A DNA stretch of 55,395 nucleotides from Prorocentrum cordatum (Eukaryota), in the NCBI GenBank assembly GCA_963575745.1, contig CAUYUJ010000164.1, positions 62,001-117,395 of the forward strand, written 5' to 3'. Shown here piece by piece: positions 13,178 through 44,460 of this stretch. Every line of letters starts with the position of its first letter. The first letter of the stretch is position 1. The notes under the pieces are model-generated. The model ran no database searches. It saw only the letters and a list, made by a program, of their open reading frames with translations, and had not been told where the DNA came from. The translations under genes and the position numbers were made by a program.

Positions 13178-13178
13178 G

Positions 13179-13903: not shown

Positions 13904-13925
13904 TCCGTAGCCATTATGGCTCAAG
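13904..13925 (+). other. Genomic dinoflagellate spliced-leader (DinoSL) relic
   Basis: TCCGTAGCCATTATGGCTCAAG versus DinoSL DCCGTAGCCATTTTGGCTCAAG: 21/22 identical. Confidence 0.92.
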
Positions 13926-15346
13926 ACTGGCGCGAACCCCCCCTGGCGGGCGTTGCGAGCATGGTGGCTGCGGGAGGCCCTCGGGCGCCCCCTGGGGCGG
14001 CGCCTGGAGCAGGGCGACTGGGTGGGCGGGCCTGGGCCCGACGCTCGGCGGCCACGCTGGCACGCAGGCTGCGCAGGGAGCGTGTCCAGGCACGGGACGG
14101 GGCGGCTGCAGCCACTGCAGCTGGGGCGGAGCTGTCTCCCCCGCAGGCCCTGGCGGCGGCCCTGGAGGATCGCCTCGTGTGGCTCGGCAATGCGCTGCTG
14201 CTGCACCACAGGGCTGACGTCGCACTTGGCTGCCGTATGCATCGCCTGGTCGATGCTCTGCGCGCGGTGGCCAAGACGATGAACGTAGAGATGGACTTCG
14301 TGCACTGGGGCATGGAGATCAAGGGCGACGGCGACAAGGCGAGGCACGAGCCGCTCGTCGCTGCGGACATCAAGGTGGAGGTCTGCGTCGCGGAGCCCGC
14401 GCTGGAGCTCAGCGGCCAGGGGCGCTGGCTGGGAGTGCGGCAAGCGCCTGGGCCGCGCCGCGAAGCGGCGCCCTTTCACCCGCCTTCGTCCTGGACGCCG
14501 CTGCGGTCAGGCGCCCAGCCTTACGTGCCGGGGTGGGCGCGGGCAGAGGTGCTGCTGACCGAGCTGGGCTTCTCGAGCCAGGAGGCCGAGACGACTGCGC
14601 ACGCCGACGATCGCGCGAACGGGGTCGTCAAGGATGTGCTCGCCGACGACGCCAAGCTGAACGTGCTGGAGGCCCACGTGTCGGGGGACTGCGCGGGGGG
14701 CGAGCAGCAGGAGCCCGAGGCCCTCGGGTTTGAGCTGGACGACGTGGAGGAGCACGTCGACAAGAAGTTGCAGAGCGAGGTGATGCTGGACGCCCGCATG
14801 GTGCGCCACATCCTGGAGGTGGAGGCTCAGCTGCGCAGCTGAGAGGCGCTTTACAAGGTATTCGAGACGGGCCTGCTCGTGCGGGTCCGCGGCATGCTGG
14901 ACAGGCTCGGGTTCGAGCCACACGGCAAGCCTGCTGAGGGCGGCGCCCCGCCTGCGCGGAAATTGGCCGTGTCCCCGCCCGACTCGCCCATCCCGCGCGC
15001 GGGCGCGGGCGTCGCGGCCGCGGAAGCTGCGAGGTCATGCGACGGAGTGCGGGACGGGGACGCGTTGGAGCCTGACGTCCCCAGCCACAGCCTGCCTGCG
15101 AACTGCGACGGGGTGGTGGAGCGGCCGCCGTTCGCTGTGGAGGGCGAGGACGACGTGCCCCCGCCCCTGGGAAGACGAGCTCTTCTTCAACTACGACGAC
15201 TTGGAGGCGATGGTTGCCACAGCGAGAAGGCCGGTGGGCAGTGTGAGACGGCTGTGGGCCATCGCGTCGGGGCGGGTCGAGGACTCGCTATGCTGATGCA
15301 GTTTTGGGTGTGTCTGCGCGGAAATCCTGGGGAGGGGGCCCAATGA
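13916..15346 (+). pseudogene. SL-headed intronless retrocopy; one reading frame with an internal TGA at 14840-14842; product unknown
   Basis: Track ORFs 13481..14842 and 14879..15346 share a frame; unique sequence 13904-15415 is bounded by (CAT)n on both sides. Confidence 0.6.
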
Positions 15347-15414
15347 CCCAGTGGGTGAGTGAGAAGTTGCGGTGGGCACGAGCGGTTCGGCTCCGACTGC
15401 CCTTGGAGAGCGGG

Positions 15415-15415
<1 letters not shown>

Positions 15416-15490
<75 letters not shown>

Positions 15491-15943
15491 GCATCATCAT
15501 CATCATCATCACCACCATCATCACCATCATCATCATCACCACAATCATCACCATCATCACCATCATCATCACCATCATCACCATCACCATCATCATCATC
15601 ATCATCATCCTCATCAGCATTATCATCATCATCATCATCATTAGCATCATTAGCATCATCAGCATCATCAGCATCATCATCATCATCGTCACCATCATCA
15701 TCGTCATCGTCATCGGCATCATCACCGTCATGATGACAGTCGTCATCATCGTCGCCACCGGCATCATCAGCATCACCACACCGTAAGCATCAACAACATA
15801 AACATAATCAACAACATCGTCATCATCATGATCACCATAATCAACACACCACCACCATCCTCATGTTCCTCCTCCTCCCACTCCTCCTCCTCCTCCTCCT
15901 CCTCCGCCTCATCATCATCATCATATCATCATCATCATCATCA

Positions 15944-15976
<33 letters not shown>

Positions 15977-16016
15977 TCATCATCACTGCCATCACCACCA
16001 CCACCAGCATTAACAG

Positions 16017-16095
<79 letters not shown>

Positions 16096-16145
16096 CCATC
16101 ATCAGCAGCAGCAGCAGCATCAGCATCAGCATCAGCACCAGCATC
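15416..16145. repeat. (CAT)n array with (CCT)n, (CGT)n and (CAG)n patches
   Basis: Direct reading. Confidence 0.95.
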
Positions 16146-16149
16146 ACCG

Positions 16150-16993
16150 CTACCTCCGCAGCAGGGCGGTGGGGTGGCGTGCTCCGGGGCCAATCGTGGC
16201 CACCACGTCATGTCGAGCTTCGTCGGGAGGACCGCCATCGAGAAGAGGCCAGTGGCCATTATGTTCCTTGACCTCACGAAGGCTTTCGACAAGCTTGTGC
16301 GCGAAATGGCCTTCCACCTTGAAGCTGGCTCCACCACGGAGGCGGACCTGACCGCGCAGCTCAAGCAAGTAGGGGTTGACGACACGGCAGCCTCGCATCC
16401 GGCCAAAATACCTCATGCACCACGGTGGCATCTTGCAGCACATCGAAGTCCCCGAGCACCTCATCAGCTTGGTGGCCAACCTGCATAAGGACACCTGGCT
16501 CGCACTCTCTCCAGAGGGCAGGGTCATCCGAACAACGAGGGGATCACGCCAAGGCTGCCGCTTCGGCGCCTTGACCTTCAATATTGTGTACAGCGTAGCC
16601 CTGGGAGAGCTTCGAGTAGCGCTTGACGAGCTCAAACTCATATTCGCTGCGGAGTGCGAGCCCAGCGGCCCGCCATGGGCCAACCAGCAAGGCGCCTTCC
16701 CCACCCAGACCGTGCCAGTTGGAGAGGTCACGTACGTCGACGATGACGCCATATTGATTCAGGGCGAGGACAACGCGAGCCTCAACCGCAATGTCGCCAT
16801 GGTAGCCGAAGCGGCGCACCCCACCATGGAGAGTCACGGCATCCAGCTGAACCTGAAGCCTGGGAAATCAGAGGCCCTCATCATGTGGATGGGCAAGGGC
16901 GCCCGGGCCGCTAAGGCTGAGGCGATAATCGGCGAGCGCCCTGCCTTGGCCCTACCTGGAGTCCCAGGTATCGGGTGTCTCCTGGTATGCTAG
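16150..16993 (+). pseudogene. Non-LTR retrotransposon reverse transcriptase fragment, frameshifted near 16380-16400
   Basis: FLDLTKAFDKL in one frame; RGSRQGCRFGALTFN, YVDD and LNLKPGKSE in the next. Confidence 0.88.
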
Positions 16994-17339
16994 AACCTTC
17001 GCGCGCGCTTCGCGCGCGCTTCGCGCGCGCTCAGGTTCTGGTCGTGGGCGCGGCCTGGGCACTGAGGGGGGGATTCTTGCCACGAAGGCGGCGGAGTCTT
17101 CTCCCACCGGAAAGCGCGCTTCCGGAACATGGGGGGGAGCCCTCTGATCATTCTCATGCGCTCCTGCGCCCTATCCGCTCGCACCCTCGGCCCTGGACCC
17201 CTGCCTTCTGTACCTTGCGCGATCGTCGTCGTCGACGTCGGCGGTGCATGATCCCTTTCTCGTGTTCCGGAAAGCCTTATCCGGAACATGGGTGCGAAGA
17301 AAGGCCTCGCGCGGGTGGGGAAGGGCCTCCTCGGCTTGT

Positions 17340-17920: not shown

Positions 17921-17931
17921 AGACAAGACAT

Positions 17932-18200
17932 CGTAACCAAATCACGCGCCCAAAGTATTGTAATTTACGATGGTTTGTTGCGTGCACGTGCGTAACCAAA
18001 TCGGCCTCTTGTTGAGCCAAGTTCGTATGAGAGGGGTGCATTATTTTGATTTGGTTGCGCGCAATTTGATTACGAAATGTGATTTGGTTATGTTTTGGTT
18101 CTGAAACTATCAAATTTGGTTACGATTCGGTTACGCTGTATCAAATTTGGTCACGATTTGGTTACGTTTCCATATGGTTAAGATTTGGTTACGATTTGGC
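17932..18200. repeat. ATTTGGTTACG / CGTAACCAAAT repeat cluster; also 20222-20300 and 22590-22757
   Basis: Motif present in both orientations. Confidence 0.75.
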
Positions 18201-22425: not shown

Positions 22426-23236
22426 GCACCCAGGGAGCGCAACTGGGAGAACCGCGCGTTTGCTTTTACCTTTGCTGTTGATTTTGCTTGGCCCCCAGGG
22501 GACTGGGGGAACCGCCCGGAGCGGTTTATACTGCCCGGCCCCTTTAAGCCAACAGAGTAAGAACCCTTCTAGGCAGAGCCTAGGTAGGGAAATATGGTTA
22601 CGATTTGGTTATGCGAACATCTTCCCGGGAAGATTTTGGTTACGGGGATGTTGAATGCATTTTGATGGTTCAAGTGTGAGGGGTCGATCGTAACCAAATT
22701 CTTCGCGTTTTGGTTACGCGCAACAGTTCCGAGCGTAACCATATGATTTGGTTACGTACACTAGGGTCTAGACAGGTTCACGGGACGGCCGGGACTCTCC
22801 GGGGGACCTGACGCCACCATGGCGACCGGGGGCAGCTGGGCGAAGGCCCTTCGCCCCCGGTACCCCGATATTCCTCTTCCTATATTTTTACACGCCCAGG
22901 CGGGGGGACCCCTCCCCCCAAAACCGGACTCCCGGGATCTGGGGCTTTGGGGCCCTCTGGACGGGCCTCGAAGCGGCCCCCCAGGCCTCGCAGGGCGTTT
23001 TGCCAAGCCTTCCCAGCACACCTAAGGCGATCAGGGGGGTCATCGGAGAAGTCCCAGAGACCCCCAAGACAGCACAAGAGCGCTCCAAGAGTGACCGACG
23101 TGACCTCAAGATGGCCCAAGAGGCCTCCAGGACGGCCCCAAAGAGGCCTCCAAGAGCACTCCCAAGAATGCGCCAAGAGGCAACAATCATTTATTTTCTT
23201 CTTCCCCAAACAGCTTGCTGAACGGGGTGCTGTTGT

Positions 23237-26200
23237 GATAGAAGCTAACTCTGGCCGAGGGAAGTCGGAGCAGAGACATCCTCACAAAAATTTGATGGTC
23301 CGGGCCGTTTCGCTTGAGACATCCTCACAACTGTCGTTTCTGAATTGGCCGGGATTGGCCGTTTCGCCTGAGACATCCTCGAAAAGCTGCGCTCCAGGAC
23401 GCCGCGCGAGAGGTGGTCCAGGCCGTTTCGCTTGAGACATCCTCGAAACTCTGAGCCCCGAGGTGCCGTGCGAAAGGTGGTCTGGGCCGTTTCGCCTGAG
23501 ACATCCTCCTCGAAACTCTGAGCTCTGAGATGCCCTGCGCGAGGTGGTCCGGCCCGTTTCGCCTGAGACATCCTCGAAACTCTTACCTCGGGGATGCCGC
23601 GCGAGAGGTGGTCCGGCCCGTTTCGCCTGAGACATCCTCGAACTTCTGAGCTCTGAGATGCCTTGCGCGAGGTGGTCCGGCCCGTCTCGCCTGAGACATC
23701 CTCGCAACTCTGAGCTCTGAGATGCCGTGCGCAAGGTGGTCCGGCCTGTTTCGCACAAGACATTCGCGCAACTCTGAGCTCCCAGATGCCGCGCAAGAGG
23801 TGGTCCAGCCTGGGGGCCCAGAAGACCACATGTTACATATCCTCCCTGGGACCCTCGGAGCCCGCCTGAGACATCCTCGAACTTCTGAGCTCTGAGATGC
23901 CCTGCGCGAGGTGGTCCGGCCCGTCTCGCCTGAGACATCCTCGCAACTCTGAGCTCTGAGATGCCGTGCGAAAGGTGGTCCGGCCTGTTTCGCACAAGAC
24001 ATTCGAAGACCACATGTTACATATCCTCCCTGGGACCCTCGGAGCCCCAGGAGGCCCCAGAGAGCTCCAGAAGGCCGCAGGACGCCCATGACAGGGCCCA
24101 GGGGTCCCCAGGAGATTCCCAGGTGGCTCCCAGGAGGCCCCAGCAGGCCCCCTTATCAGAACGTGTCAAGTTAATACACATCCGGTGTCGATTCGTTGAT
24201 TATTCCTGCTCTTGTGCCCCCCCCTCCATTTTAAGAGGCCCAAGCGGCCACAGGTTAGATATCCCCCCTGGGAGCCCCAAGAAGCTTCAGGAAGCCCCAG
24301 GAGGAGCTCAGGAGGCCACAGGAGGCCCAGGAGGAAGCCCCAGGAGGTCCCCAGGAGGTCCCAGGAGGCCCCAGGAGGCCCCCACAACTCGGAGCTCTGA
24401 GACGCCGCGCTCGAGGTGGTCCGGCCCGTTCCGCATGAGACTTCCTCGCAGCACGTTTCGCCCGAGACACTGGCCCGTCTCGCCTGAGACATCCTTGCAA
24501 CTCTGAGCCCTGAGATGCCGCGCGCAAGTTGGGCCGGCCCGTTTCGCACAAGACATTCGCGCAACTCTGAGCTGCCAGATGCCGCGCAAGAGGTGGTCCA
24601 GCCTGGGGGCCCAGAAGACCACATGTTACATATCCCCCCTGGGACCCTGGGAGCCCCAGGAGGCCCCAGAGAGCTTCAGGCAGCCGCAGGACGCCCAGGA
24701 CAGGGCCCAGGGGTCCGCAGGAGATTCCCAGAGGCTCCCAGGAGGCCCCAGGAGGCCCCCTATCAGAACGTGTCAAGTTAATAAACATCCGGTGTCGATT
24801 CGTTGATTTTTCCTGCTCTTGTGCCCCCCCCCCATTTTGGGGGGCCCCGACGGCCACAGGTTAGATATCACCCCCTGGGAGCCCCAAGAGGCTTCAGGAA
24901 GCCCCAGGTGGGGTCCAGGAGGCCACAGGAGGCCCAGGAGGAAGCTCCAGTCACCAGGAGGCCCCAGGAGGCCCCAGGAGGCCCACGCAACTCGGAGCTC
25001 TGAGACGCCGCGCTCGAGGTGGTCCAGCCCGTTTCGCATGAGACTTCCTCGCAGCACGTTTCGCCCGAGATATCGTCGCAACTCTGGGGTCCGAAATGCC
25101 GCGCGCGAGGTGGTCCAGCCCGTCACGCTGGAGACATCCTCGCAACTCTGGGCTCCGAGATGCCCTGCGCGAGGTGGTCCGGCCCATCTCGCCTGAGACA
25201 TCCTCGCAACTCTGAGCTCTGAGATGCCGTGCGCAAGGTGGTCTGGCCCGTTTCGCACAAGACATTCTCGCAACTCTGAGCTCTCAGATGCTGCGCAAGA
25301 GGTGGTCCAGCCTGGGGGCCCAGAAGACCACATGTTACATATCCCCCCTGGGACCCTGGGAGCCCCAGGAGGCCCCAGAGAGCTTCAGGAGGCCGCGGAC
25401 GCCCAGGACAGGCCCCAGGGGTCCGCAGGAGATTCCCAGGAGGCTCCCAGGAGGCCCCAGGAGGCCCCCTATCAGAACGTGTCAAGTTAATAAACATCCG
25501 GTGTCGATTCGTTGATTTTTCCTGCCCCCCCCATTTTGGGGGGCCCCGACGGCCACAGGTTAGATATCCCCCCCTGGGAGCCCCAAGAGGCTTCAGGAAA
25601 CCCCAGGTGGGGTCACCAGGAGGTCCCCAGGAGGCCCCAGGAGGCCCCCGCAACTCGGAGCTCTGAGACGCCGCGCTCGAGGTGGTCCGGCCCGTTTCGC
25701 CTGAGACTTCCTCGCAGCACGTTTCGCCCGAGACATCGTCGCAACTCTGGGGTCCGAAATGCCGCGCGCGAGGTGGTCCAGCCCGTTTCGCTGGAGACAT
25801 CCTCGCAACTCTGGGCTCCGAGATGCCGTTCGGGATGAAGAGGAGGTGGAGGTGGAGGAGGAGGAGGAGGAGGAGGAGGAGGAGGAGGCATGTTTTAACA
25901 TGCCATGCCAGCCCGCACTGCACGGGCACGCAATCGACCTTGGAAACCGCCGTGGGTCTAAAAACCCTGTTTGGGGATACTGCACTCCGGCTATAATGAT
26001 AGAAGCTAACTCCGGCCGAGGGAAATCGGAGCAGAGACATCCTCACAAAAACTTGAAGGTCCGGGCCGTTTCGCTTGAGACATCCTCACAACTGTCGTTT
26101 CTGAATTGGCCGGGATTGGCCGTTTCGCCTGAGACATCCTCGAAAAGCTGCGCTCCGGGACGCCGCGCGAGAGGTGGTCCGGGCCGTTTCGCTTGAGACA

Positions 26201-27455
26201 TCCTCGAAACTCTGAGCCCCGAGGTGCCGTGCGAGAGGTAACTCTTACCTCGGAGATGCCGCGCGAGAGGTGGTCCGGCCCGTTTCGCCTGAGACATCCT
26301 CGAACTTCCGAGCTCTGAGATGCCTTGCGCGAGGTGGTCCAGCCCGTCTCGCCTGAGACATCCTCGCAACTCTGCGCTCTGAGATGCCGTGCGCAAGGTG
26401 GTCCGGCCTGTTTCGCACAAGACATTCTCACAACTCTGAGCTCCCAGATGCCGCGCAAGAGGTGGTCCAGCCTGGGGGCCCAGAAGACCACATGTTACAT
26501 ATCCCCCCTGGGACCCTGGGAGCCCGCCTGAGACATCCTCGAAACTCTAACCTCGGAGATGCCCTGCGCGAGGTGGTCCGGCCCATCTCGCCTGAGACAT
26601 CCTCGCAACTCTGAGCTCTGAGATGCCGTGCGCAAGGTGGTCCGGCCCGTTTCGCACAAGACATTCTCGCAACTCTGAGCTCTCAGATGCTGCGCAAGAG
26701 GTAATCCAGCCTGGGGGCCCAGAAGACCACATGTTACATATCCCCCCTGGGACCCTGGGAGCCCCAGGAGGCCCCAGAGAGCTTCAGGAGGCCGCGGGAC
26801 GCCCAGGACAGGCCCCAGGGGTCCGCAGGAGATTCCCAGGAGGCTCCCAGGAGGCCCCAAGAGGCCCCCTATCAGAACGTGTCAAGTTAATACACATCCG
26901 GTGTCGATTCGTTGATTTTTCCTGCTCTTGTGCCTCCCCCCCCATTTTGGGGGGCCCCGACGGCCACATGTTAGATATCCCCCCCTGGGAGCCCCAAGAG
27001 GCTTCAGGAAGCCACAGGTGGGGTCCAGGAGGCCACAGGCGGCCCAGGAGGAAGCCCCAGGAGGTCACCAGGAGGTCCCAGGAGGCCCCAGGAGGCCCCC
27101 GCAACTCGGAGCTCTGAGACGCCTCGCTCGAGGTGGTCCGGCCCGTTTCGCCTGAGACTTCCTCGCAGCATGTTTCGCCCGAGACATCGTCGCAACTCTG
27201 GGGTCCGAAATGCCGCGCGCGAGGTGGTCCAGCCCGTTTCGCTGGAGACATCCTCGCAACTCTGGGCTCCGAGATGCCGTTCGGGATGAAGAGGAGGTGG
27301 AGGAGGAGGAGGAGGAGGAGGAGGAGGAGGAGGAGGAAGAGGAGGAGGAGGCATGTTTTAACATGCCATGCCAGCCCGCACTGGACGGGCACGCAATCGA
27401 CCTTGGAAACCGCAGTGGGTCTAAAAGCCCTGCTTGGGGATACTGCACTCCGGCT
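23237..27455 (+). repeat. Composite satellite of ~62-65 bp monomers (GAGGTGGTCCGGCCCGTTTCGCCTGAGACATCCTCGCAACTCTGAGCTCTGAGATGCC) in duplicated blocks
   Basis: Monomer spacing 23411/23476/23541/23607/23669; block copies 23237~25997 and 25620-25990~27070-27455; ATCAGAACGTGTCAAGTTAATA block four times. Confidence 0.92.
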
Positions 27456-30582: not shown

Positions 30583-30584
30583 TC

Positions 30585-33500: not shown

Positions 33501-33833
33501 TTCGCGGCCCCCGCGGGACAAGACGGGAGATCGTGCCCCTCCGCCAGGGCCGCCAGGATCTCCCCATGTTCATCAGAGCGAGCAATCCACCTAGGATACA
33601 GACCAATAAACACTGGAGCATGATCACTAACGCTGCCAGGTTGGAGAACATCCCAACGCGTCCCAAAGACAGGGCCGAAGTCCGGGATGTCGCAGGTAGG
33701 AGTAGTTATGTAGATGCGGTCATTACGCCCGAGAGACATCGGTGCCCAATGGTCGTCAGCTTGATGCGATCGAAGAATATATCTAGATTTTTCCATCTCA
33801 GCCAGGCACGGGAATGCAGGATCGAAGTGCCCC

Positions 33834-33864
<31 letters not shown>

Positions 33865-35607
33865 ACACACGCACCCCGCCCCCAAAGATATCGCAGCCCA
33901 TCTCCTGGAACGAATCAGCGAGCCTCAATCGGCCCTCTCCAACCGCAGCAAAGTTAAAAAGTCACCAGCAAGAACGGACGCGGCCAGGTGCGGAGGAGGA
34001 AGATGAACAGAGATCGTGTTGAGAATGTCCTAAGCCTCGGCGCGGTGGGGGGGGGAAGGAGGGGCCAAGGTGGAAGTTGAGGACGCGGAGCGAGCCGCAG
34101 TCGCCCGATAGTGCGAGATGAGACAGCCGCCCTGGATCAGCAGCCCCCCCCGCCTGATCTCCCAGTTCGGAGAGGGCGAATGAGCTAAAGTAGCGAGCAA
34201 TCCGCCCGCAGAAGGTCTGGCAGTACAAGGACCCCACGTCTTCCATTCAGGATGCAACTTCCGAAATTTTTCAAATGCCCTAGAGCCCGTGAGTCTCTGG
34301 GATGAAAACAATATCGAAGCTGGCCGCTAACCTCCGAGAAGCGCCGTAAGTTCCTCGAACATTATCACTGGACGTCCATATAGATCCAAACGAAGTATGC
34401 GCATTCCAAGACACCAGCCTAAGCGGCCCATGGAAAGGAAGGAAGGGCGTGGATGGGGAAAATCTAAAAGGCCCTGGGGGAGGTAGGTGACATGTATAAC
34501 AGGCGCAACCAGAACAGGGCAGGACTCAGGATTGGGGGACTCACTCAGGCGCTGCCGGGGTTCGGCGCTCTCCACCATGTCACAGGGCGATGGGCTCAAT
34601 CAAGTCCGCGACGCTCTTCTCATTCGCATTGATAGCGGCGAAGCTCGAGAGGACAGGGGTGAATGTGGAGCTATCTCCTCGCCGCTCGTGATGTGCACCA
34701 TCTCGAACACCTCGTCGCTGGACGCGTAGCGCATCGGCCCCTGATAGCCGTGCGCTCCGAGCCTGAAGCCTGTCACGTCCTTGCCCCCATTACGGAGCAA
34801 AGTCATCCCGCCTTCGTGCAGCTTGTTTGCCGCCCTCTGGCGCTGGCGCACGTCGATCGGCATGTCCCTCCTCGGGTAGACTTCGCGCGCGCGGCCGTCC
34901 CTGGGATCCGCCCAGGAAAGATCATGATCTCGAAGGAGATTGCTGAACTCCTTGGCTGGCAACACAGTGGCAAACGTAAAGCCGTAGCTGTTGCCCACCC
35001 ACGCGATCGTGACCGTCACGGGGTCCCTGATGTGGTGCGGTAGCTTGGGCTCTACGATCTGCTCGCAGTGCTCACTCCGCTGCTTCCCGGTGAGGCTGCG
35101 CGGGAATGTCCCCATCCAGCGCCGCTTCTTCTTCTTCTGGTCCTGCACATATTCAGCTGGGTTCCCTCTAACTCTGCGATGCTTTGACGATGCGCCATCA
35201 CTCGCACTGCTCGCCCCCTGATGATGCACACGAAGCTGCTACCGCCGCGTAAGATGGCAGCTGCTCCTGCTTGGACTTGAGCTCGGCAATCTCGCTCTGC
35301 TGTGCTTTGACCACCTCGGAGAAATATTTGACATTGTCTGCTAGACCTGCCAGCTGAGCTACCTGCTCAGCCAGTCCTTTGTTCACCGCGGAGGCGAGGT
35401 CCGTCATCTTCTCATTGAGGCTGGATCGAAACGTCGCGAAGAGCTGCGCAATCTCGACCACTGCAGCAACTGAGGTTTGTTGGGGAGCCCTGCCCCGTCG
35501 TGCAAGAAAGAGAAGAATTCGTGTCCGCCTGGGCTCAACAGCCAGATTGCCCTCTGAAGAGAGCTGCCCGCCCAAATTGGACCTGTTCCCACTTGAGCCA
35601 AATTGGC
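30585..35607 (-). mobile_element. Decayed, near full-length non-LTR retrotransposon (ORF1 + APE-RT-Zn, L1/Tx1-like), many frameshifts
   Basis: ORF1 coiled-coil-like segment (35198-35520) continuing into 34600-35229; APE remnants SWNAH, DIVFIPETHG (~34290-34320), LAGDF, DRIY, SDHAPV; RT remnants SAPGMDG, FLPKG..KTRPL, GFADDLA (~32168-32188); C-terminal CLCRC...LDHYMRCP. Clade is inferred; the 3' boundary is approximate. Confidence 0.82.
35592..35607 (-). other. Partial DinoSL relic at the 5' end of the L1/Tx1-like element
   Basis: GCCAATTTGGCTCAAG versus GCCATTTTGGCTCAAG: 15/16. Confidence 0.75.
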
Positions 35608-36047
35608 AAAGGAAGGAGGAAGAGGAGGAGGAGGAGGAGTAGCAGCAGCAGCTTGGGCGCGTAGTGCGGCGGACTCCAGACAACGCGACGCAAGCTACCG
35701 CACTCAGGTCGTCATTAAGCGGCCCTTCGCGGCGTCGAAAGCCTTTTGATGGATGAAGCAAGTGGTGCCGCTCTCGGAGCGGTGGAGGACGACGGGGAGA
35801 AGGAGGGGGAGGAAAAGGAGAAGAAGGAACAGGAGCGCCTGTGGCTCACCAGGTTTGCCCTTCGCCGCGCAGACCGCGGGCGTGCGGACTTGGGGCTCTT
35901 ACTTTGACAGCCTGTCGAGGGTCGCCGTGAAGCAGTTGTAGTGGATATGTTACTTCTTGGGGGGTTCGTTGAAGGTGCAGACTCTCACCTCCAAGCATCA
36001 CTAGTAAAGGAATGCGATGTTCCGAATGGTCATCCTCATGGAGTGCT

Positions 36048-36335
36048 CAGGACGAGGGGGAGGACGAGGGGGAGGAGGAGGAGGAGGGAGCAGGAGGAAG
36101 AGGGAGGAGGGGGAGGGGGAGGGGGAGGGGAAGGACGAGGAGGAGGAGGAGGAGGAGGAGGAGGACGACGACGAGGAAGAGGAGGGGGAGGAGGAGGAGG
36201 AGCAGGAGGAGGAGGAGGAGGAGGAGGAGGAGGAGGAGCAGGAGCAGGAGGGAGCAGGAGGAAGAGGAGGAGCAGGAGGAGGAGCAGGAGGAGGAGGAGG
36301 AGCAGGAGGAGGAGGAGGAGGAGGAGGGGGAGCGG
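36048..36335. repeat. (GAG)n microsatellite
   Basis: Direct reading. Confidence 0.9.
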
Positions 36336-37110
36336 TGGAGCGCGCAAGCGCGCGCGCCCCCAAACGCGGCGCCCTCAGAGCCGGCAGCTGGCGCCCTGGA
36401 AGGGCCGGAACGGGCCGGGCATCTTGTGGCCCACCTGGGGGGAGCGATGGGGGGGGAGGGCTCGATTCGGCGAGGCACAGCTGCCGGAGAGCACCCCGAG
36501 GCTGGACAACCGCCGAGAACATCGAAAACGCCCTCCACCTGTCGTTTTGCCCCTGGCCACCGCCTCCGGCTCTCGGCGAGGCGCAGCTGCTGGAGAGCAT
36601 CTCGCGGCTGGAAAACTGGAAAACCGCCGAGAACAGCGAGAACGCCCTGAGGCCAAAATCGTTTCTCACGATTCGCGAGAACGGCCATTACCCAGGATGC
36701 TCCCCGCTTCCCCACCCCACCTGGTAACGTCACGCTTCGCGCTGGCGCCTTTTGGGACTTGCTGCAAGGGTGTACTAGCTCCCAAACGGCGCCGGCGCAA
36801 AGCGTGACGTCACCAGCCCTCTCGCCCACCCTCTACCCCCCCTGTAACGACCGTTATCGCGAAGGATTAAAAAACGGGCCCCTCGTTCGTCTTGATTTTT
36901 CATAACATCGACCTTCAGAGGTCTCGCCCCACTCCACGGGACCGGTTTCTCATCCTGAGTCCTTCTTTGGCGGTCCAGAGGCCCTGCAAGGGCCCCCAGA
37001 GGTCGAAAACAACCGAAAACCTACCGCCCAGATTGTTGCATTATTCGAGAGGGTCTGGGTTGCCTCACGCAGGGAGGAGGAGGAGGGAGGAGGGAGGAGG
37101 AGGAGGATGA

Positions 37111-37975
37111 GGACCAGTGTAAACCCAAGAGTCATCAACGACGTTGGAGTAAACCCTCCCTCCAAGCTCCATCTTCATAGGCCCGTACAACTGTTCATTT
37201 CCATTGTTGGAACTGCCTCGTTGGAAGACACCCGCTTGAAGACCCTGAAGCAATCCCAAGCATTGTTCTCGGGGTTCCAACGCCACGGATCAACCTGATT
37301 GTTGCGTCCTGACGATCCTGAATCGTGCGAGAAAGCCGTTCCTAGGACATCAGCACAGAGAATCAACGTAACTGTTGCACCCGCATAATCCAGAATCCTT
37401 CCCAAACACAGATTTTGGTACGTTGATGATGGGAATGTGTGAAACTCTTGAAAACTTAGTAAACGAATGTGCGCGGCGCTAGGGCGATAACCACATTTTG
37501 AAAAGGAATCGCCCTCAATCCGTGAAGCTCTTGCAAATATTTAAAACGAATGTGCGCTGCGCTAAGGCGAAAGACACATGTTGAAAACGACCTGCCCTCA
37601 ATCCGCGAAGCTCTTGCAAATGTTTAAAACGAATGTGCTCCGCGCTAAGGCGATAGCCACAATTTGAAAACCACCCGCCCTCAATCCGTTACGCTCTTGC
37701 AGACTTGTACAATGAATGTGCGCGGCGCTGAGGCGAGAGCCACATCCAAAAAACGGCCCGCCCTCAATCCGCGAAGCTCTTGCAATTTTGTTAAACGAAT
37801 GTGCGCCGCGCTAAAGCGAGAGCCACAGTTTGAAAACCACCCGCCGTCCGTCTGTGAAACTCTTGCCAATGTTTGAGCTTCAGGGTCATAAGTGGTAAAA
37901 CAATATGAGGCGAAAGCCCTAGAAACTGGACGCGGTCGGGGTGCGACGCGGAGAAAATACTTATAAGGAACAGGA
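37111..37975 (-). mobile_element. Non-autonomous repeat module, copy 2 (~320 bp body plus five 83-bp monomers)
   Basis: Monomer anchor (C/T)GAATGTG at 37464, 37547, 37630, 37713, 37796; GAG tracts on both sides. Strand is inferred. Confidence 0.7.
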
Positions 37976-38289
37976 ATGGTGGATGAGGAGGAGGAAAAGG
38001 AGGAGGAGGAGGAAGAAGAGGAGGAGGAGAGGACGCAGGGAGGAGGAGAAGGGGGATAAGGAGAGGATGCAGGGAGAAGGAGAAGAAGGAGGAGGAGGAG
38101 GAGGGGAAGGAGGAGAGGAATTTTTTGACATCAACATCAAGGGAGAGAGCCTGCCCAGACAATTAGGGCAGGACGGCTGGTCAAGCCAGCAAATACTAAC
38201 ACCTGAAAAGCGAGGAAAAGCAGCGGGCCACAGGGACATCTCCAGCTGGCTGGAGGATACCCCGTGGCCCGCTGCTTCTCCCCCAGGCG

Positions 38290-41200
38290 TTAGTCCGAAC
38301 TCGAGTCGCCCTCATCACGGTGCGCGAGCACCGAGATAAACGACGCCTCTCTGGCCTCACTACGAGAAGAGGCCGGGGCACAGGGCATTCCAAGAAGGGG
38401 GGGAGGAGGAGGAGGAGAAGGAGGGCCCTGAAAAAGAAAACGAGAGGCTTCTTCGTCCGCCTCCCAGTCCTGCAACCAAGCGTGCTCGGACACAGTCGCT
38501 CCCCCCCCCGCTCCCCGCTCCACCCCGTCCCCACGGTCCTCGGCGGCGGTGGCGGGGCGCGGAGAGCCGTGCTCCTGCGCCGCGGCGGCACCTGCATCGG
38601 CAACCTGATGGCCTCCTCCCTTCTGCGCCCAAGGCCCTCTCTCTACCGAGACTCCTGGACGCTTTGGATGGAGGCCTTTACAAATCGGGTGCCAACTGTT
38701 GTGCTTCTTTGATCTGGTCGGGCCGCTGCAAACATCCGCAAGGCCCGACGCACGACCATGAGACGAATAAGAATAGCACTTGGTGCAGATCACCAAAGTC
38801 GAATTGTCTGAGCAGGCCAGCGTCAAACACCTGTGTCCCCGCGCCTCCAAAACCTGCGCCTCCATCCCTCGAACAGGGGAGCACTTAGAGGAGGGAGGCG
38901 GGGGACCGTGGGTGGAAAGACGGCTGACTTTTGCACACCTCGAACACTTCCAAAAGCCCGAGACGGAACCAAGCTCGAAAATCTGGATGGGCTGCCAATC
39001 GCAAAGCACAGAAGAAACCACCTGGGGGGGGTCCTTAGGCGGCTGAATCCACACAACGTCTTGGAGGTCTAATTTGGGCCACAAAGGCATCAGCTTAGCA
39101 GACAGTGATGCCACAGCCCTAGAAAACTTAATGTCGAGATCAAGCCTGCACCTGTCCTCCTCCGACGGCTGTGGGTGCCCCAGGTACCCTTCCCCCGCAG
39201 AAGCGCTTTTAGCTCCTACATCAGCATGGTGGTTCCCAAAACGGCACATCTTGTCATGATTGTCGGTCCACTCATCCAAGGAGCGATGCGCTTTCACTTT
39301 GTTCAAAGAGCGGACCTTCCAGAAATCCGAAAGGAGGGAGAGGGAGAACCCGCTGTAGCATCGCTTAGGTGAAAGCTGGTCAATCTGAGGGCGACCGAAG
39401 TGGTCTTTGACCAGCTGAGCATCTGTATAAAAATCCGAAGGTCCTCCTGAGAAAAGTATGGCTTGACAAATCGCAGCAAACTCGCCCGCAGGGGCAGTCT
39501 GGGGGTAGCACGGGGGGACGGGGCCGTAGAGCTTTCCCAAGAGGTCCCCCTGGTCGTCCACAGCCACAAAACACCAGCCTGCCCTGCTGAGCTCGCGAAC
39601 TATATGCTTACATGCGCTACCGTCGGTGAAAATATTGTTTGTGAAAGGAAATTGGCCTACCTCCTGGGGAAGGTCCTCCCTGGCCCAGAAAGTACCAGAC
39701 GACTCGGCCGCGGGACCAGGAAAATAATCCCCAGGGTGGGCAAAAGCTCCAAAACAAGATCGAATCGAATTGGGCTCCTCCAGGGCCTTGCAAACAAGCT
39801 CGGGAGTAACGAGACTGGAACGGACCTCGACAACTTCCTGGCACCTGCAGACCCAGAGTCGGTGGTGGAGCGTGTCGGGGGCTGAGCCGCAGAGGTGGCA
39901 CGTGGGGTCTATCTGGTAACCCTTTCGCAAAGCTTTTGCACGAGTCCACACTGCGTCCGTAGCAACAGCCCGAATACACCCTTTCTCGAGCGCTGAGTAT
40001 TTTTTGCGGCGGAGCTCGAACTTCACCACGTCAAAGCACAGACGATGAGGCACATCCCATTTAGCGCCAGCTTCCCACTCGAGAACCCTGAAGACTGCCC
40101 CACGGAGATGCTGCTTGACAAGCTGGGGGGACATGAGGGTCATGGAAAGCTCGATCCCCTTGTCAGTGACGAAAGTGGCGAAGTCCCTCATCGTCCACGA
40201 GATCCTCTCCAAGGACTTGCGCATGGCGGCCACAGGACCACCTACCGCCCTCCACGAGGGGGAATCCTGAAGAAAAACACCTTCCCACGCTTGCCTCAGC
40301 TCCCTGAAAGGAATCGAGCCTTCAAAGGCCCTGACCTGAGAGCACCAAACTTCCTTGTGCCACCGCAAGATCGGGGAAACGGCCCCAACCCAAGCAGGGT
40401 CGCCTTCGAGGTGGGAAAGCACCGTCAGGGAGCGTTGGCCAGCTGAAGGCTTAATAGTCCTGGCCGCCGCACGGCGGATGAGCATCAGCTCGTAGTCTGT
40501 AACCCCTCTAACCTCGCTGCCATACAGCAAGCCAGGGAGCGGTCCTGCAGTGAAAACTCGCAAAGTTCTCCTGGAACCGAGGGTCTTACGAAGTTTAGCC
40601 ACACGGCCAGTGCGTTTGATGAAAAGACGCCTCCTAATCACCAGCTTTTTGTTACGACCCTGGGTCCGAGAACTCTTCCCCACCGTGTCGTCCACCCCAA
40701 GGTTAACAGCACTGGAAGTAATGGGACCCGTGAGCTCAACTCCCAGTTTGGCCTGAATGGCCCTGCCTAGCTTGGCCGAGGAACAAATCAGGCTGGATTT
40801 GTCAGCCGCCACCTGCGCACCAATGCCATCAACGATGGCAGCGTGGAGCTGGGGCGCGCCTTCCGTGATGGCGTCCACAACAAAATTGAAACTGCCGACA
40901 GCACTGAGGCCAGAATCGTCGATGTAGAGCGCCAGTTGAGCACCCTGCCGTAACCTAACAGAATCGAGCGACTCCACAGCGTTAACCCTGATCAGGGTCG
41001 TGGCCAACGAACACCCCGCTATGATTCCAGAAGAAGCGTACCACGGACCGTCGATGCAGCCACCCAAGGAAAGAAACCTCGTGGCCCTGTAGGCCCTAAC
41101 AGCCAACTTGGCCATAGCAATAGGGAAACCCAATCTTATACATCGACCGAGGAGTCGCTCGAGATCAATGAGCTCGTAGTATTTAAACATGTCCTGCAGG

Positions 41201-43179
41201 AGGGTAGCCGCATGTAAGTTGTGAGTGGCCCCACTCTCGCTGCGGACGCTTTGCCGCCACACAACGTCTGAGGCCCCCTGGTACTTGCCCGCCGCAAAGT
41301 AGGGGCGAGCGTGCGCCCCCTCCCAGCTCTCGGCAAGGCACCGCCGCGCTTTCCCCCAGATGCGGTAAGGACCCATGAAAATCCCGATAGGGCGGAACCC
41401 TCCAGTAGGTTTCCCCAGGAGCGCCAACACTGTGGCATCAAGCTGAAAAGGCAACATGCTGGAGATTTCCATGACCTGCAGGATCCTACACAGCGCCGTG
41501 ACCCCAGGAAGGGAAATCATACTGAAATGTTTCATGTGGAAACCGTCCACGCCCACCGCCGAATTCATCTTGTAGCTCCTCGAAATACGGACCAACTCGT
41601 TGGGGTCCAAAAGGGGGAGCTCAGGGGCAGGAGCGAAATCGGCAATAGGTCCCAACTCCAGCGGGGAGTCAAAAGCACGCCATAAATGAATAAACTTGTT
41701 GCGTTCAGCCTCGAGAAGGGACCTGGGGTCACTGACCACACAGCCGTTGGACGAGAGAGTGGAAGTAGGTTTCCAGGGCTTGGGTTCAGAAGTGACCATG
41801 TGAGCTCGCTTGGCCCCCTGATCGATGTTCTCTCTCAGCCAACTACGCCAGGAAGCTAAACTGCGGTCCCTAGCACTGGCTTCTGCCTGCGCGACCACGT
41901 CGGAGACCGAGAGATACAGATCGAGAACGTCCTGCTCGAGCTCTCCGCTCGAGTTCAAATCAGCACGGGTGATCATGGACTGCAAAGTGATAAGCAGCTC
42001 CTTATGGGCACCCAGATTCTCGACCACGAAAGGGGGAGGGTGAAAAATGTAGGACCTCAGGGCCCTCGCAAAATCACCTCCACCACTCTTGGCCTTTTGG
42101 GAATAAGACGAAATATACACCTTGCAGTCCAAGATGCGATTATACAGCCACCTGACAGAGTACAGAAAGGGGTGCCTAAGAGGTTCCTTGTCCTTCGAGA
42201 AAACAGGCTTCCACATAAGCTGAGGACCCTTGCCTCTCGCACCCCAAACCGGAAGCACCGATTGAGTGGCGTTGGCCACCTCCACTTCCGCTAGGTTGGC
42301 CCACCACTTGTAGGTGAGATTGAGCAGCCTTTGAGTTTCAGCCCCCCTCCCCGCCCTGGCAGCTACCAGAGCCGCCTCCAGCACATCGAGAACAGGGTCC
42401 CAAGATGGGGGTTCCCGAGTGGGCCCTATGGCCCTTTGGGGGGGAAGGGGGGGAGGTTTCCGAAATTCCAAAACGTTGAGTTGAGCAGGCGAAGGGAAAA
42501 GCTCCAGATCCACAGGGGAGTGGGGGGTGAGAGGGGAATTGTAGTTGACACTCACCTGCCTGATAACCTTCGCGATGCCTGCCGAGACGACAAAGAAATC
42601 AGATACTTTGAGGCCCCCCGTGCTGCGGAGCGTGTAGCCTCCGTCTGTCGGGGTGATCATCTGGCCTTTGAACTCCGAAACGAAATGCGACTTCTGAAAC
42701 TCACCTGGAGTCATGTTGAAGTCGCCTCCCGCGATGACAGGGAGATCAGAATGTGAAAGTCCAGCTCCGAGACGCGACAAGATCTCCACGTTGCGCTCAG
42801 AAAGACCTTCGACGTCGTGAAGGTAGATCGATCCGACAAGGACCTGAAAACCTCCTGGAATATCTATAACACAAGCTCCAGCACGATGAGGGGACAGTAC
42901 GAAGCCCGACGACAACGTGTGAAGCCCGAGGTACGATCTAGCCATAACAGCAACTCCTCCAGAAGACCCAGTGCCCTCCCCACGAGCGGCCGCCGCCCAA
43001 CACGACTTCCACCCATGACGAAAGAGCCATTCAGACGCCTTGGAGATGTCTTCGTCTGAGCACAAGTGATGTTCTTGAACTAACAAAACGTGTGCCGTGG
43101 TCATTGGCAGCCACTTATTCTTAAGTGACTGCCATCCTGAAACATTGCAAGTCTGCACACAGAGCCCGAAATTATCCAA
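38290..43179 (-). CDS. ORF2: AP-like endonuclease, reverse transcriptase, CCHC finger, RNase H, C-terminal Cys/His domain (1629 aa)
   Basis: APE TCNVSG, LVQEHH, GGDFN, PHSPV; RT AVGVDG, GFRPIG, LQDMFKYYE, GIIAGC, YIDD; CHLC..TLHHRLWVC; RNase H FTDGS, AGEFAA, YTDAQ, KVKAH, GNHHAD. The start codon in the track is TTG. Confidence 0.95.
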   Translation of the reverse strand: MDNFGLCVQTCNVSGWQSLKNKWLPMTTAHVLLVQEHHLCSDEDISKASEWLFRHGWKSCWAAAARGEGTGSSGGVAVMARSYLGLHTLSSGFVLSPHRAGACVIDIPGGFQVLVGSIYLHDVEGLSERNVEILSRLGAGLSHSDLPVIAGGDFNMTPGEFQKSHFVSEFKGQMITPTDGGYTLRSTGGLKVSDFFVVSAGIAKVIRQVSVNYNSPLTPHSPVDLELFPSPAQLNVLEFRKPPPLPPQRAIGPTREPPSWDPVLDVLEAALVAARAGRGAETQRLLNLTYKWWANLAEVEVANATQSVLPVWGARGKGPQLMWKPVFSKDKEPLRHPFLYSVRWLYNRILDCKVYISSYSQKAKSGGGDFARALRSYIFHPPPFVVENLGAHKELLITLQSMITRADLNSSGELEQDVLDLYLSVSDVVAQAEASARDRSLASWRSWLRENIDQGAKRAHMVTSEPKPWKPTSTLSSNGCVVSDPRSLLEAERNKFIHLWRAFDSPLELGPIADFAPAPELPLLDPNELVRISRSYKMNSAVGVDGFHMKHFSMISLPGVTALCRILQVMEISSMLPFQLDATVLALLGKPTGGFRPIGIFMGPYRIWGKARRCLAESWEGAHARPYFAAGKYQGASDVVWRQSVRSESGATHNLHAATLLQDMFKYYELIDLERLLGRCIRLGFPIAMAKLAVRAYRATRFLSLGGCIDGPWYASSGIIAGCSLATTLIRVNAVESLDSVRLRQGAQLALYIDDSGLSAVGSFNFVVDAITEGAPQLHAAIVDGIGAQVAADKSSLICSSAKLGRAIQAKLGVELTGPITSSAVNLGVDDTVGKSSRTQGRNKKLVIRRRLFIKRTGRVAKLRKTLGSRRTLRVFTAGPLPGLLYGSEVRGVTDYELMLIRRAAARTIKPSAGQRSLTVLSHLEGDPAWVGAVSPILRWHKEVWCSQVRAFEGSIPFRELRQAWEGVFLQDSPSWRAVGGPVAAMRKSLERISWTMRDFATFVTDKGIELSMTLMSPQLVKQHLRGAVFRVLEWEAGAKWDVPHRLCFDVVKFELRRKKYSALEKGCIRAVATDAVWTRAKALRKGYQIDPTCHLCGSAPDTLHHRLWVCRCQEVVEVRSSLVTPELVCKALEEPNSIRSCFGAFAHPGDYFPGPAAESSGTFWAREDLPQEVGQFPFTNNIFTDGSACKHIVRELSRAGWCFVAVDDQGDLLGKLYGPVPPCYPQTAPAGEFAAICQAILFSGGPSDFYTDAQLVKDHFGRPQIDQLSPKRCYSGFSLSLLSDFWKVRSLNKVKAHRSLDEWTDNHDKMCRFGNHHADVGAKSASAGEGYLGHPQPSEEDRCRLDLDIKFSRAVASLSAKLMPLWPKLDLQDVVWIQPPKDPPQVVSSVLCDWQPIQIFELGSVSGFWKCSRCAKVSRLSTHGPPPPSSKCSPVRGMEAQVLEARGHRCLTLACSDNSTLVICTKCYSYSSHGRASGLADVCSGPTRSKKHNSWHPICKGLHPKRPGVSVERGPWAQKGGGHQVADAGAAAAQEHGSPRPATAAEDRGDGVERGAGGGATVSEHAWLQDWEADEEASRFLFQGPPSPPPPPPLLGMPCAPASSRSEAREASFISVLAHRDEGDSSSD

Positions 43180-43283
43180 ATCAGGCGGAGGATGGGGGCT
43201 GGAGAGAGCCTTCTACAAGCACTCCCGCGGCCACATCCTGACTGAGGAGGGGAGACGAGCCAGCCGACATCGGCTGAGGTGGG

Positions 43284-44348
43284 CTAGGAAGGAGTCCGAG
43301 GAGCAGGAGCCTCGGTAGGAGTGGCAGCCATCGTCCTGGCACGCTTGGCCGCTGCCTCGATAAAAGTCGAGACGCGCTGCCTCGACTCACTCGAGACTTC
43401 CTCCGACTGTGCCTGCTGCCATTCATGTAAAAAGTTCTGGAACGCTTCTGAGTCCGCAGCCTCGACCTGAGGCATTGCTTCATCAGAGTGAGTAGGTTCA
43501 CCCGTCTCCACCCCAGCCTCACCACCCGTCCCCCCACCACTGTCAGAAGCAGCAGGAGCAGCTCCACTGCCTGCGGCTTCCTTCTGGGCAACGGATTGGC
43601 AGCTGGTCTTGAGTTTGGCCCAGCCCTCACGAATTGCGGCCAGGTCGCCAGACTCCAGCACGCTGTCGAAGTTGGACAAATGCCCCTGGAGCTCCGCCTG
43701 CGGCGGGGGCGGGAGGTCGGCCACCTTGGCCGCCAGCTCCAGGTACCTGGCCTTGAGCTGCACCTGCTGGGTTGCGGTCTCCGCCCTCTTCTCCTTGAGC
43801 TCCGCGAGGCGCGACTCGGTGTCTGCGATCTGGGAGTCGAGCGAGTTGAGGGCGCGAACATTCTTGTCAAGAGCCTGCTGAGCCTCGGATGCCTGCTGCC
43901 GAAGGGGACGAGCTTCAGACTGCTGGGAACGGATGGCTGAAGCCGACGCCGCGATGGAGCTGGCCACTGCTGCACGCTCTGGGAAGTCGTCCTTGAGCTG
44001 ACCCATGAGCAGCTGAAGCTGGGCGAGGAGGGACGACGGGTCCGCAGGATGAGCCAAAGCGCCTCCACGACCGCCAGGTCCTCCCCCGACGCCGCCGCCT
44101 CCGCCACTCCCAAACCCGCCTTTGCCACGTCCACCACCTTTGGGTCCTTGACCTTTGTGAGAACCTTTTGGGCCTGGAACTGCAGGGCCACTTTGCCACA
44201 CACCCCCAGGATCGCGAGGAGCGCCAGGAGAAACGTGCGGAATGGGGGCCCAACAATTCGCACACCATTTGTACCACGGTTTGTTGCACTTCGCAGCACC
44301 ACACGAGAGACATTTCGCACCGATGATCTCATGCTGCTTTGGTCCCAT
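43284..44348 (-). CDS. ORF1: N-terminal C4 zinc finger, Gly-rich RGG-like linker, coiled coil (354 aa)
   Basis: CLSC...WCANC; GGGRGKGGFG; heptad-like LNSLDSQIADTESRLAELKEK; lies upstream of ORF2. Confidence 0.85.
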   Translation of the reverse strand: MGPKQHEIIGAKCLSCGAAKCNKPWYKWCANCWAPIPHVSPGAPRDPGGVWQSGPAVPGPKGSHKGQGPKGGGRGKGGFGSGGGGGVGGGPGGRGGALAHPADPSSLLAQLQLLMGQLKDDFPERAAVASSIAASASAIRSQQSEARPLRQQASEAQQALDKNVRALNSLDSQIADTESRLAELKEKRAETATQQVQLKARYLELAAKVADLPPPPQAELQGHLSNFDSVLESGDLAAIREGWAKLKTSCQSVAQKEAAGSGAAPAASDSGGGTGGEAGVETGEPTHSDEAMPQVEAADSEAFQNFLHEWQQAQSEEVSSESRQRVSTFIEAAAKRARTMAATPTEAPAPRTPS

Positions 44349-44443
44349 GGGAGACGCCGCGAACGATGCTACTGTCTGAACGAGCCACTTGACCCGCTAG
44401 CGCAGTGTGCCGTTCTGAAGTATACGCTAGCAAGCCCAAATCA

Positions 44444-44460
44444 CCTGGGCCAGAACGGCT
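44444..44460 (-). other. Degenerate DinoSL-like relic at the element 5' boundary
   Basis: AGCCGTTCTGGCCCAGG versus AGCCATTTTGGCTCAAG: 13/17, all four mismatches are transitions; sits at the microsatellite junction. Confidence 0.5.

Follow-up and report, generated by a model that had tools for sequence, protein, structure and literature searches.

Can the spliced leader of a host mark the 5′ end of its retrotransposons? This question is raised by a 55,395-nucleotide stretch of the genome of the dinoflagellate Prorocentrum cordatum (contig CAUYUJ010000164.1, positions 62,001 to 117,395 of the forward strand; hereafter the window, in whose numbering all positions are given), where three units embedded in microsatellites, here called elements 1, 2 and 3, begin with sequence resembling the dinoflagellate spliced leader (DinoSL). 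A first-pass annotation had taken all three for retroelements and had suggested that long interspersed nuclear elements (LINEs) acquire the leader as their 5′ end. Leader relicts upstream of dinoflagellate genes are well known (PMC7245778, PMC12014239, PMC5585692), and processed cDNAs that were recycled carry a full leader followed, after a second round, by a relic truncated to 15 nt (PMC7245778, PMC12014239, citing Slamovits and Keeling 2008). The machinery that makes such leader-tagged retrocopies was stated to be unknown by Song et al. 2017 (PMC5585692). We find that the three motifs are probably DNA copies of DinoSL, left as the 5′ ends of leader-capped RNAs that were reverse-transcribed into microsatellites, and that the lineage of element 3 probably passed through this cycle at least twice. 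The best reading of the mechanism is the known ‘recycled cDNA’ route, acting here on the mRNAs of LINEs.

Leader motifs at three repeat borders

DinoSL (DCCGTAGCCATTTTGGCTCAAG, 22 nt; letters from PMC7245778) served as the reference leader. Site 1 (13904–13925, plus strand; TCCGTAGCCATTATGGCTCAAG) is identical to it at 21 of 22 positions and lies directly 3′ of a (TCA)n array. The lone mismatch, T to A at leader position 13, creates an ATG at 13916 that is in frame with the open reading frame (ORF) of the element 1 family. Site 2, on the minus strand, sits behind a short CTG/CTC run and matches the leader at 15 of 16 positions over 35607–35592, or at 19 of 22 over the whole-leader span 35613–35592. 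Site 3 (44460–44444, minus strand; AGCCGTTCTGGCCCAGG) matches at 13 of 17 positions directly behind a sense-strand (CCT)n array, which Tandem Repeats Finder (TRF) reports as an AGG array on the plus strand at 44464–45154. Its 15-nt relic retains 11 of 15 leader bases, and all four changes are transitions. These positions and match counts (21/22, 15/16 and 13/17) reproduce those of the first-pass annotation, which had also placed each motif at the border between simple repeat and unique sequence, in sense orientation relative to the coding sequence behind it; this was borne out at all three sites. The reading frames behind the motifs are supported by homologues for elements 1 and 2, and by apurinic endonuclease (APE) and reverse transcriptase (RT) domains for element 3.

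Sites 1 and 2 are far above chance expectation: with up to three mismatches over 21 nt they are the two matches in the window, and none of 100 dinucleotide shuffles contained any. With up to four mismatches over 17 nt, the window yielded exactly sites 1–3. Since 30 shuffles averaged 1.47 matches (range 0–4) at this stringency, site 3 needs evidence beyond its own sequence. A chance resemblance at site 3, with true relics at sites 1 and 2 only, would agree with the expectation of about 1.5 matches of 13 in 17 per shuffled window. The motif, however, forms the first 17 bases within a target-site duplication, and in two public runs a perfect leader joins it at the point that the recycling model predicts, 15 nt from its end; we regard chance as very improbable. 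Site 3 is a real relic: a perfect DinoSL precedes it in copies about 98% identical to the window, and a 16-bp duplication stands at its first base.

At sites 1–3 the leaders are joined directly to element sequence, with no GTA-type start or T-run behind them. At the 33 leader-gene-like sites in metagenome contigs (see below), the leader is followed by a GTA-type intron start and a T-run. The leaders at sites 1–3 are, judging by this sequence context, not leader-RNA genes. A second, older relic was not detected behind any of the three leaders at 10 or more matches in 15; the stretches just downstream in element 2 (CCAATTTGG) and element 3 (GATTTGGGCT) are at most suggestive of older relics.

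Element 3, a LINE with stacked leaders

Element 3 is a nearly intact bicistronic LINE with APE and RT, which extends from 44460 to 38121 on the minus strand (Table 1). One 16-mer was found exactly twice in the window, both strands considered, directly 5′ of 44460 and directly 3′ of an A6 run. Because this 16-bp duplication abuts 44460 and the A6 run, the inserted unit is 6,340 bp long and the relic bases come first in it.

The N-terminus of ORF1 carries a CxxC...CxxC motif; a Gly-rich stretch and a coiled-coil-like middle part are also present. Its GC content is lowest at codon position 2, like that of ORF2, which supports the ORF1 frame. A Pfam search of ORF1 gave weak coiled-coil-type matches, nothing stronger and no DNA methyltransferase (DNMT) domain, and tblastn gave no match elsewhere in the window or among the at least 126 leader-bearing metagenome loci listed. 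A 395-codon frame at 43184–44368 was rejected as an overlapping alternative, the true ORF1 being 44348–43287. Behind it, the long frame 43212–38290 contains Exo_endo_phos (32.8 bits, cut-off 24.5) and zf-RVT (E = 0.0077) together with a weak match to RVT_1 (E = 0.04). Amino acids 431–940 of ORF2 align with the ORF of a neighbouring LINE at 50115–55389 (tblastn, E = 3.4e-44) that passes the RVT_1 cut-off (30.0 bits vs 29.6), and it is this homology to an RVT_1-bearing ORF that establishes the predicted RT of element 3. ORF2 had 0 matches in a PDB sequence search, and no match in scans of viral_contigs and genome_contigs. An ATG at 43270, 13 nt past the ORF1 stop, reads into the endonuclease once a single extra base at ~43193 is removed, which is absent from four of the four runs compared. 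The window copy of ORF2 thus appears to be frameshifted 77 nt in; alternatively, the extra base, which lies next to a G5 run, could be an assembly error. A fusion of ORF1 and ORF2 through a missing base at ~43193 had been considered and was dropped for this frameshift.

The position of the target-site duplication bears on whether the leader is part of the element at all. If the LINEs had inserted site-specifically beside pre-existing leader genes or relics, in the style of SLACS, CZAR and CRE, the leader would be flanking DNA, and leader-targeting LINEs do exist in another trans-splicing lineage. Here, however, the flanks are microsatellites and not leader-gene units, and no leader intron or second half of a leader is present at the 3′ junctions. 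Because the target-site duplication of element 3 falls outside the AG-plus-relic, the relic lies inside the inserted unit; site-specific insertion is contradicted for element 3, and overall we give it almost no credence.

A comparison with public runs, using 38290–44462 as query, found 11 runs that share sequence with element 3 (none recorded as RNA; best word share 0.56), and the contigs of four of them (X1, X7, X5 and X8) were aligned to 38120–44480 at 80% likeness. All four runs have common differences from the window, amounting to about 1.6–2%, and none contains the window’s own copy. Two runs were informative at the 5′ end, as the X7 contig ends at 44440 and X8 has no cover at 44460. In X5, one contig of 1878 nt has 30 differences over 42605–44460, and in X1 one contig of 399 nt has two differences over 44077–44460; both diverge from the window at 44460. 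On the plus strand they continue past this position with TGAGCCAAAATGGCTACGGAGGA (X5) and TGAGCCAAAATGGCT (X1), the reverse complements of which are leader positions 1–20, preceded by TCC in X5. Together with the AG of the window, these continuations form a perfect 22-nt DinoSL directly before the 15-nt relic. The first-pass annotation had suggested the AG that ends the relic as a possible site of the fresh leader; instead, the junction lies 15 nt before the relic end, at the internal AG of relic positions 6–7. Tandem leader relics at the junction, which it had proposed to count, are present in these copies of element 3 (X1, X5) and were not detected in elements 1 and 2, behind which none reaches 10 of 15. 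Because the same worn relic stands behind a perfect leader at the start of other copies, RNA of the element 3 lineage appears to have been leader-capped and reverse-transcribed at least twice.

The leader could also be a chimeric add-on, acquired when the LINE enzyme jumps at the end of reverse transcription onto a leader-bearing RNA. LINE enzymes are known to switch templates, as exemplified by U6-L1 chimeras, all three leaders are located exactly at the 5′ junction, and element 3 of the window has no leader though a close copy has one. A jump onto the leader RNA would, however, have copied part of its intron too, and none is present, unlike at the 33 leader-gene-like sites. Moreover, the fresh leader of element 3 is joined precisely at the AG and is followed by a canonical 15-nt relic, which is what splicing predicts and template jumps do not. 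We consider template switching unlikely, and prefer repeated leader capping and reverse transcription.

Element 2, a decayed RT element

With a leader relic at its head and a length of about 5 kb, element 2 appears to be an older RT element that has decayed. Its body contains several in-frame stops and at least one frameshift according to the frame map, and its 3′ limit was placed from the start of a (CCT)n run; a longer sense-strand (CCT)n is found upstream at 36049–36332. When a 348-aa piece (33705–32662) was searched with phmmer against 1.84 billion representatives, six matches were obtained at E ≤ 0.001, including P0011, a 942-aa protein that carries RVT_1 at 8e-22. In tblastn, P0011 is colinear with the minus strand behind the relic (33628–33362, 33246–32662, 32653–32408 and 31275–31117; E = 3.2e-18). 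A direct Pfam search of element 2 gave no match, and neither did a scan of viral_contigs with P0011. As to a possible endonuclease in element 2, the sole sign is a weak reciprocal hit on the terminal part of the element 3 APE (E = 0.07–0.9), and the two elements have no detectable similarity at E ≤ 0.001. Both flanks of element 2 are perfect repeats, in which a target-site duplication is unreadable. The proposal that at least two LINE lineages are headed by a leader is reasonable in view of element 3 and this unrelated RT element with its 19/22 relic.

Element 2 is matched over 33166–33567 on the minus strand, with 100% identity, by a 134-aa protein, P0007 (recorded source: eukprot), whose frame crosses the region in which the frame of the P0011 match changes. 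P0007 may stem from a transcript of the element 2 locus.

Element 1, a leader-headed retrocopy

Element 1 (13904–15414) splits one (TCA)n array into two blocks, and a 35-nt identical repeat stretch occurs in both flanks; these are perfect repeats, and a target-site duplication is undecidable there. Six annotated relatives, named Prorocentrum cordatum, are 64–76% identical to it. The frame of the family runs from 13916 to about 15296, where the relatives end, and in the window copy it is interrupted by a TGA at 14840–14842, where the relatives have W, and by a frameshift near 15165. Because the relatives read W through this TGA, the window copy is a pseudogene, and its family encodes about 460 aa with no assigned function. 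No Pfam family was found for the ORF, the Protein Atlas held no usable match, and a scan of metagenome_contigs with the family gave no match. Nor did 13904–15414 yield any Pfam match to APE or RT even at E up to 5, or any tblastn match to the LINE proteins of the window. Of the three retroelements claimed by the first-pass annotation, two can be upheld, element 2 with its RT and element 3 with APE and RT; element 1 has neither before the next array begins. It is a 1.5-kb leader-headed retrocopy whose status as a LINE is not demonstrated.

Directly after the downstream array follows an RT fragment (16147–17000), which starts at RT motif A, shows the motifs FLDLTKAFD, RQGC and YVDD and matches P0011 weakly in tblastn (E = 0.01). 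It was treated as a separate, 5′-truncated LINE and not as part of element 1.

Element 1 might be an ordinary host retrogene, processed in trans from a cellular multi-copy gene, so that two of the three units are transposons. This would account for the lack of APE and RT in 13926–15414 and for the annotation of the six relatives as stand-alone or chimeric gene models by a pipeline that discarded transposon-like models (PMC10666404). It would also agree with the non-leader residues that one relative, P0001, has upstream of the shared part, and with two metagenome units of 3.2–3.4 kb whose ORFs lack RT and APE and which are likewise leader-headed between runs of one microsatellite. On the other hand, the family is multi-copy, its members show indels and some resemble pseudogenes, and the unit ends straight into the microsatellite with no A-run. 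The RT fragment behind the repeat, on the same strand, would suit an ORF1-only non-autonomous element or a LINE with internal loss. We judge the question of a host retrogene to be evenly poised.

Leader-bearing metagenome contigs

A scan of metagenome contigs with the perfect 21-nt leader returned at least 126 loci with at least 141 sites; the counts that follow refer to those listed. A microsatellite adjoins 13 of 97 distinct non-gene leader sites with at least 20 nt upstream, compared to 366 of 20,000 random positions (1.8%) and one of 32 leader-gene-like sites. The adjoining repeats include GGGT, TG, CA, TA, TCA, TC and T-runs, and the loci concerned include L019, L054, L059, L066, L070, L084, L096, L112 and L116. 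Nine repeat-adjoined loci were inspected, namely eight of the 13 and L066, which has fewer than 20 nt upstream, and four of the nine extend more than 1.4 kb downstream. In two of these (L070 and L066) the same CA/AC repeat returns after 3.2–3.4 kb, and in the other two (L019 and L059) it does not return within 1.4–1.7 kb; the ORFs of all four contain no RT or APE. Microsatellite embedding is a property of leader-headed retrocopies in general. An earlier idea, that the (CCT)n array was selected as the polypyrimidine tract of a trans-splice acceptor, was dropped as the adjoining repeat types are too varied. Because the repeats beside the metagenome leaders are of many kinds, repeat-targeted integration is the simpler explanation.

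A separate group of leader sites was noted in the same scan. Among the 141 perfect-leader sites, 33 are located in 22 AT-rich loci with a GC content of 0.17–0.35 (among them L002, L003, L014, L016–L018, L030, L043, L045–L047, L061–L063, L069 and L077). The leader is preceded by TTTTA at 15 of these 33 sites, compared with TTA at two of 108 sites in GC-richer loci. Several leader sites can occur on one AT-rich contig, directly upstream of ORFs, and the contigs carry giant-virus-like genes such as a major capsid protein of nucleocytoplasmic large DNA viruses (L074), PolX (L047), a RecQ-type helicase (L061) and FtsJ (L017). They look like large DNA viruses in which the host leader is encoded before the viral genes.

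A proposed cycle and its weight

We propose that the old leader of element 3 decayed to a 15-nt relic and that a later RNA of this element was trans-spliced again at the AG just before the relic, which would have given rise to copies with a perfect 22-nt leader plus relic. The window copy would begin at that AG either through a cDNA that ended 20 nt short or as a copy of the source type. Element 1 would be a processed copy of a multi-copy ORF, which such LINEs probably mobilised in trans, or else a non-autonomous element that consists of the ORF alone. We infer that trans-splicing, and not a promoter, sets the 5′ end of the elements, with transcription by read-through.

Several points weigh against this reading. 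On sequence alone, site 3 is not significant and falls within chance expectation. The perfect leader is represented by one contig in each of two runs, and the type of the runs X1, X5, X7 and X8 is a guess (DNA); if they were RNA, the X1 and X5 contigs would be direct evidence for trans-splicing at the AG of relic positions 6–7. Leader-less copies are not countable from the contig ends listed, as 166 further ends lie outside this list. The window copy of element 3 itself is without leader positions 1–20, and the copy with the leader may be a further insertion or may represent this locus in a different strain. In the window the AG directly adjoins the duplication, which favours a separate insertion or a window cDNA that ended 20 nt short. 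As regards element 1, its relative P0001 has non-leader residues at the position of the window’s leader, and this head, together with the lack of APE and RT, is more in keeping with retrocopies of a host gene family than with a transposon. Finally, none of the at least 126 leader loci listed matches the LINE and element proteins of the window at E ≤ 0.1, and RVT_1 was found in 0 of 98 sense ORFs of at least 150 aa behind non-gene leaders (one of the 98 has Exo_endo_phos, on an AT-rich, virus-like contig of 17% GC); leader-headed LINEs are uncommon among the metagenome loci listed.

Dinoflagellate genomes are full of leader-tagged retrocopies, and element 3 extends this known habit to the jumping genes themselves. 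LINE copies with stacked leaders imply that the candidate retrocopying machinery, like its cargo, goes through a leader-capped RNA stage. The microsatellite embedding shared by elements 1–3 and by the metagenome sites points in the same direction, to a link between LINEs and the retroposition of host genes. A leader-headed unit within a simple repeat is a concrete and countable signature of integration, and stacked relics offer a way to count rounds of retrotransposition. In a wider and rather speculative version, which we hold to be possible and somewhat doubtful, dinoflagellate LINEs would have no internal promoter and would travel as passengers of long unidirectional transcripts, from which trans-splicing excises and caps them and makes them translatable, with the leader as inherited 5′ end. 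The same microsatellite-targeting machinery would retrocopy host mRNAs and leave leader-headed units in simple repeats across dinoflagellates. If this promoter-free version were true, the agent long sought for the copying of leader-capped host mRNAs into DNA would be microsatellite-targeting LINEs.

Comparison with known systems

SLACS, CZAR and CRE of trypanosomatids have their insertion site in the leader exon of leader-RNA genes, which makes the leader their target DNA. They share with the present elements the association of a LINE with a spliced leader; they differ in that the present leader is enclosed by the duplication, a microsatellite serves as target and no leader halves are present on both sides. 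Microsatellite-specific LINEs such as Waldo, Mino, Kibi, Koshi and Dong resemble elements 1–3 in being inserted, with a uniform orientation, into a simple repeat that flanks them at either end. Among the copies in this window, elements 2 and 3 lie in sense-strand (CCT)n and element 1 in (TCA)n. To our knowledge, none of Waldo, Mino, Kibi, Koshi and Dong is reported to carry a host leader.

The closest likeness is to DinoSL-relict retrogenes, which likewise have a genomic leader at the 5′ end on the sense strand, a full leader plus 15-nt relic and re-splicing at the AG of positions 6–7. In contrast to these, the recycled RNA is here a LINE mRNA (element 3), with a second RT element beside it, and not that of a host gene; moreover, the present units sit within microsatellites, and a target-site duplication is defined for element 3. 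Song et al. 2017 reported that the Gene Ontology (GO) term ‘RNA-dependent DNA replication’ is enriched among leader-relict genes (PMC5585692), which fits RT genes that carry relicts. A statement that LINEs begin with a leader is absent from the available passages of PMC7245778, PMC3229502, PMC12014239, PMC11453091, PMC5890265, PMC8045281, PMC3942190, PMC7789003, PMC10666404, PMC5585692, PMC5776459, 10.1101/783902 and PMC10235124, all of them non-subscription literature.

SymbioLINE of Symbiodinium (de Mendoza et al. 2018, PMC5890265) is similar to element 3 in having ORF1 and an ORF2 with APE and RT, target-site duplications and no long poly-A tail. It differs in that no DNMT domain was detected in ORF1 of element 3, and the likeness is not based on RT relatedness; the terms ‘spliced leader’ and ‘DinoSL’ do not appear in the main text of PMC5890265. 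L1Tc and ingi of trypanosomatids (PMC1874656, PMC8190864) are LINEs in a host with leader trans-splicing of long transcripts, as here. In contrast to the present case, where the host leader is the 5′ end, these trypanosomatid LINEs use an internal promoter of their own (the 77-nt Pr77) and their transcripts are unspliced.

Features of the window

Table 1 Coordinates of the leader motifs, the units behind them and their flanking repeats in the window.
Feature	Position	Strand	Basis
(TCA)n array, upstream flank of element 1	13130–13903	.	TRF, period 3, 258.7 copies (TRF span 13130–13905)
Element 1, full-length DinoSL relic	13904–13925	+	21/22
Element 1, body; pseudogenised copy of a multi-copy ORF plus about 120 nt of 3′ untranslated region (UTR)	13926–15414	+	relatives, translation
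(ATC)n array downstream of element 1, same repeat as upstream	15415–16146	.	TRF
Separate 5′-truncated RT fragment, directly after the (ATC)n array	16147–17000	+	RVT_1, E = 0.0053
Sense-strand (CCT)n array 3′ of element 2	30360–30580	-	TRF, AGG array
Element 2, body; decayed, LINE-like	30581–35591	-	frame map, phmmer, tblastn
Element 2, full-length DinoSL relic	35592–35613	-	19/22 over the full 22-mer
Short CTG/CTC/CTT run immediately before the leader of element 2	35614–35652	-	sequence
Element 3, 3′ copy of the target-site duplication, 16 bp, inside the (TCC)n run 37981–38119	38105–38120	-	16-mer count, TRF
Element 3, 3′ end, A6 run	38121–38126	-	sequence
Element 3, ORF2 (APE + RT + zf-RVT)	38290–43270	-	Pfam, tblastn
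Element 3, ORF1, 354 aa + stop	43284–44348	-	translation, GC by codon position
Element 3, 5′ UTR	44349–44443	-	ATG at 44348
Element 3, first 17 bases, AG + worn 15-nt leader relic	44444–44460	-	13/17
Element 3, 5′ copy of the target-site duplication, 16 bp	44461–44476	-	16-mer count
Rest of the (CCT)n array that precedes element 3	44477–45154	-	TRF

Three blocks of an 83-nt tandem repeat (37074–37877, 49033–49823 and 11551–12344) are 66–80% alike and are oriented the same way. All three adjoin a (TCC)n or (GAC)n run, and two of them are located just 3′ of LINEs. That this block belongs to element 3 was considered and rejected; it is a separate repeat or non-autonomous element, since it falls outside the target-site duplication.

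The neighbouring LINE used above for comparison (50115–55395, minus strand) matches RVT_1 with 30 bits and RNase_H weakly, is ~25% identical to ORF2 of element 3 and runs off the window at its 5′ end. A 1074-codon frame on the minus strand at 3724–6945, with weak matches to aspartyl proteases, possibly represents an LTR-type element; beside it, at 2004–3775, lie arrays of 33–141-nt repeats rich in CCCTAA and GGGTC motifs. The region 23236–27460 contains a large block of 64-nt tandem repeats together with an array of GCCCCAGGAG-type 10-mers, duplicated several times.

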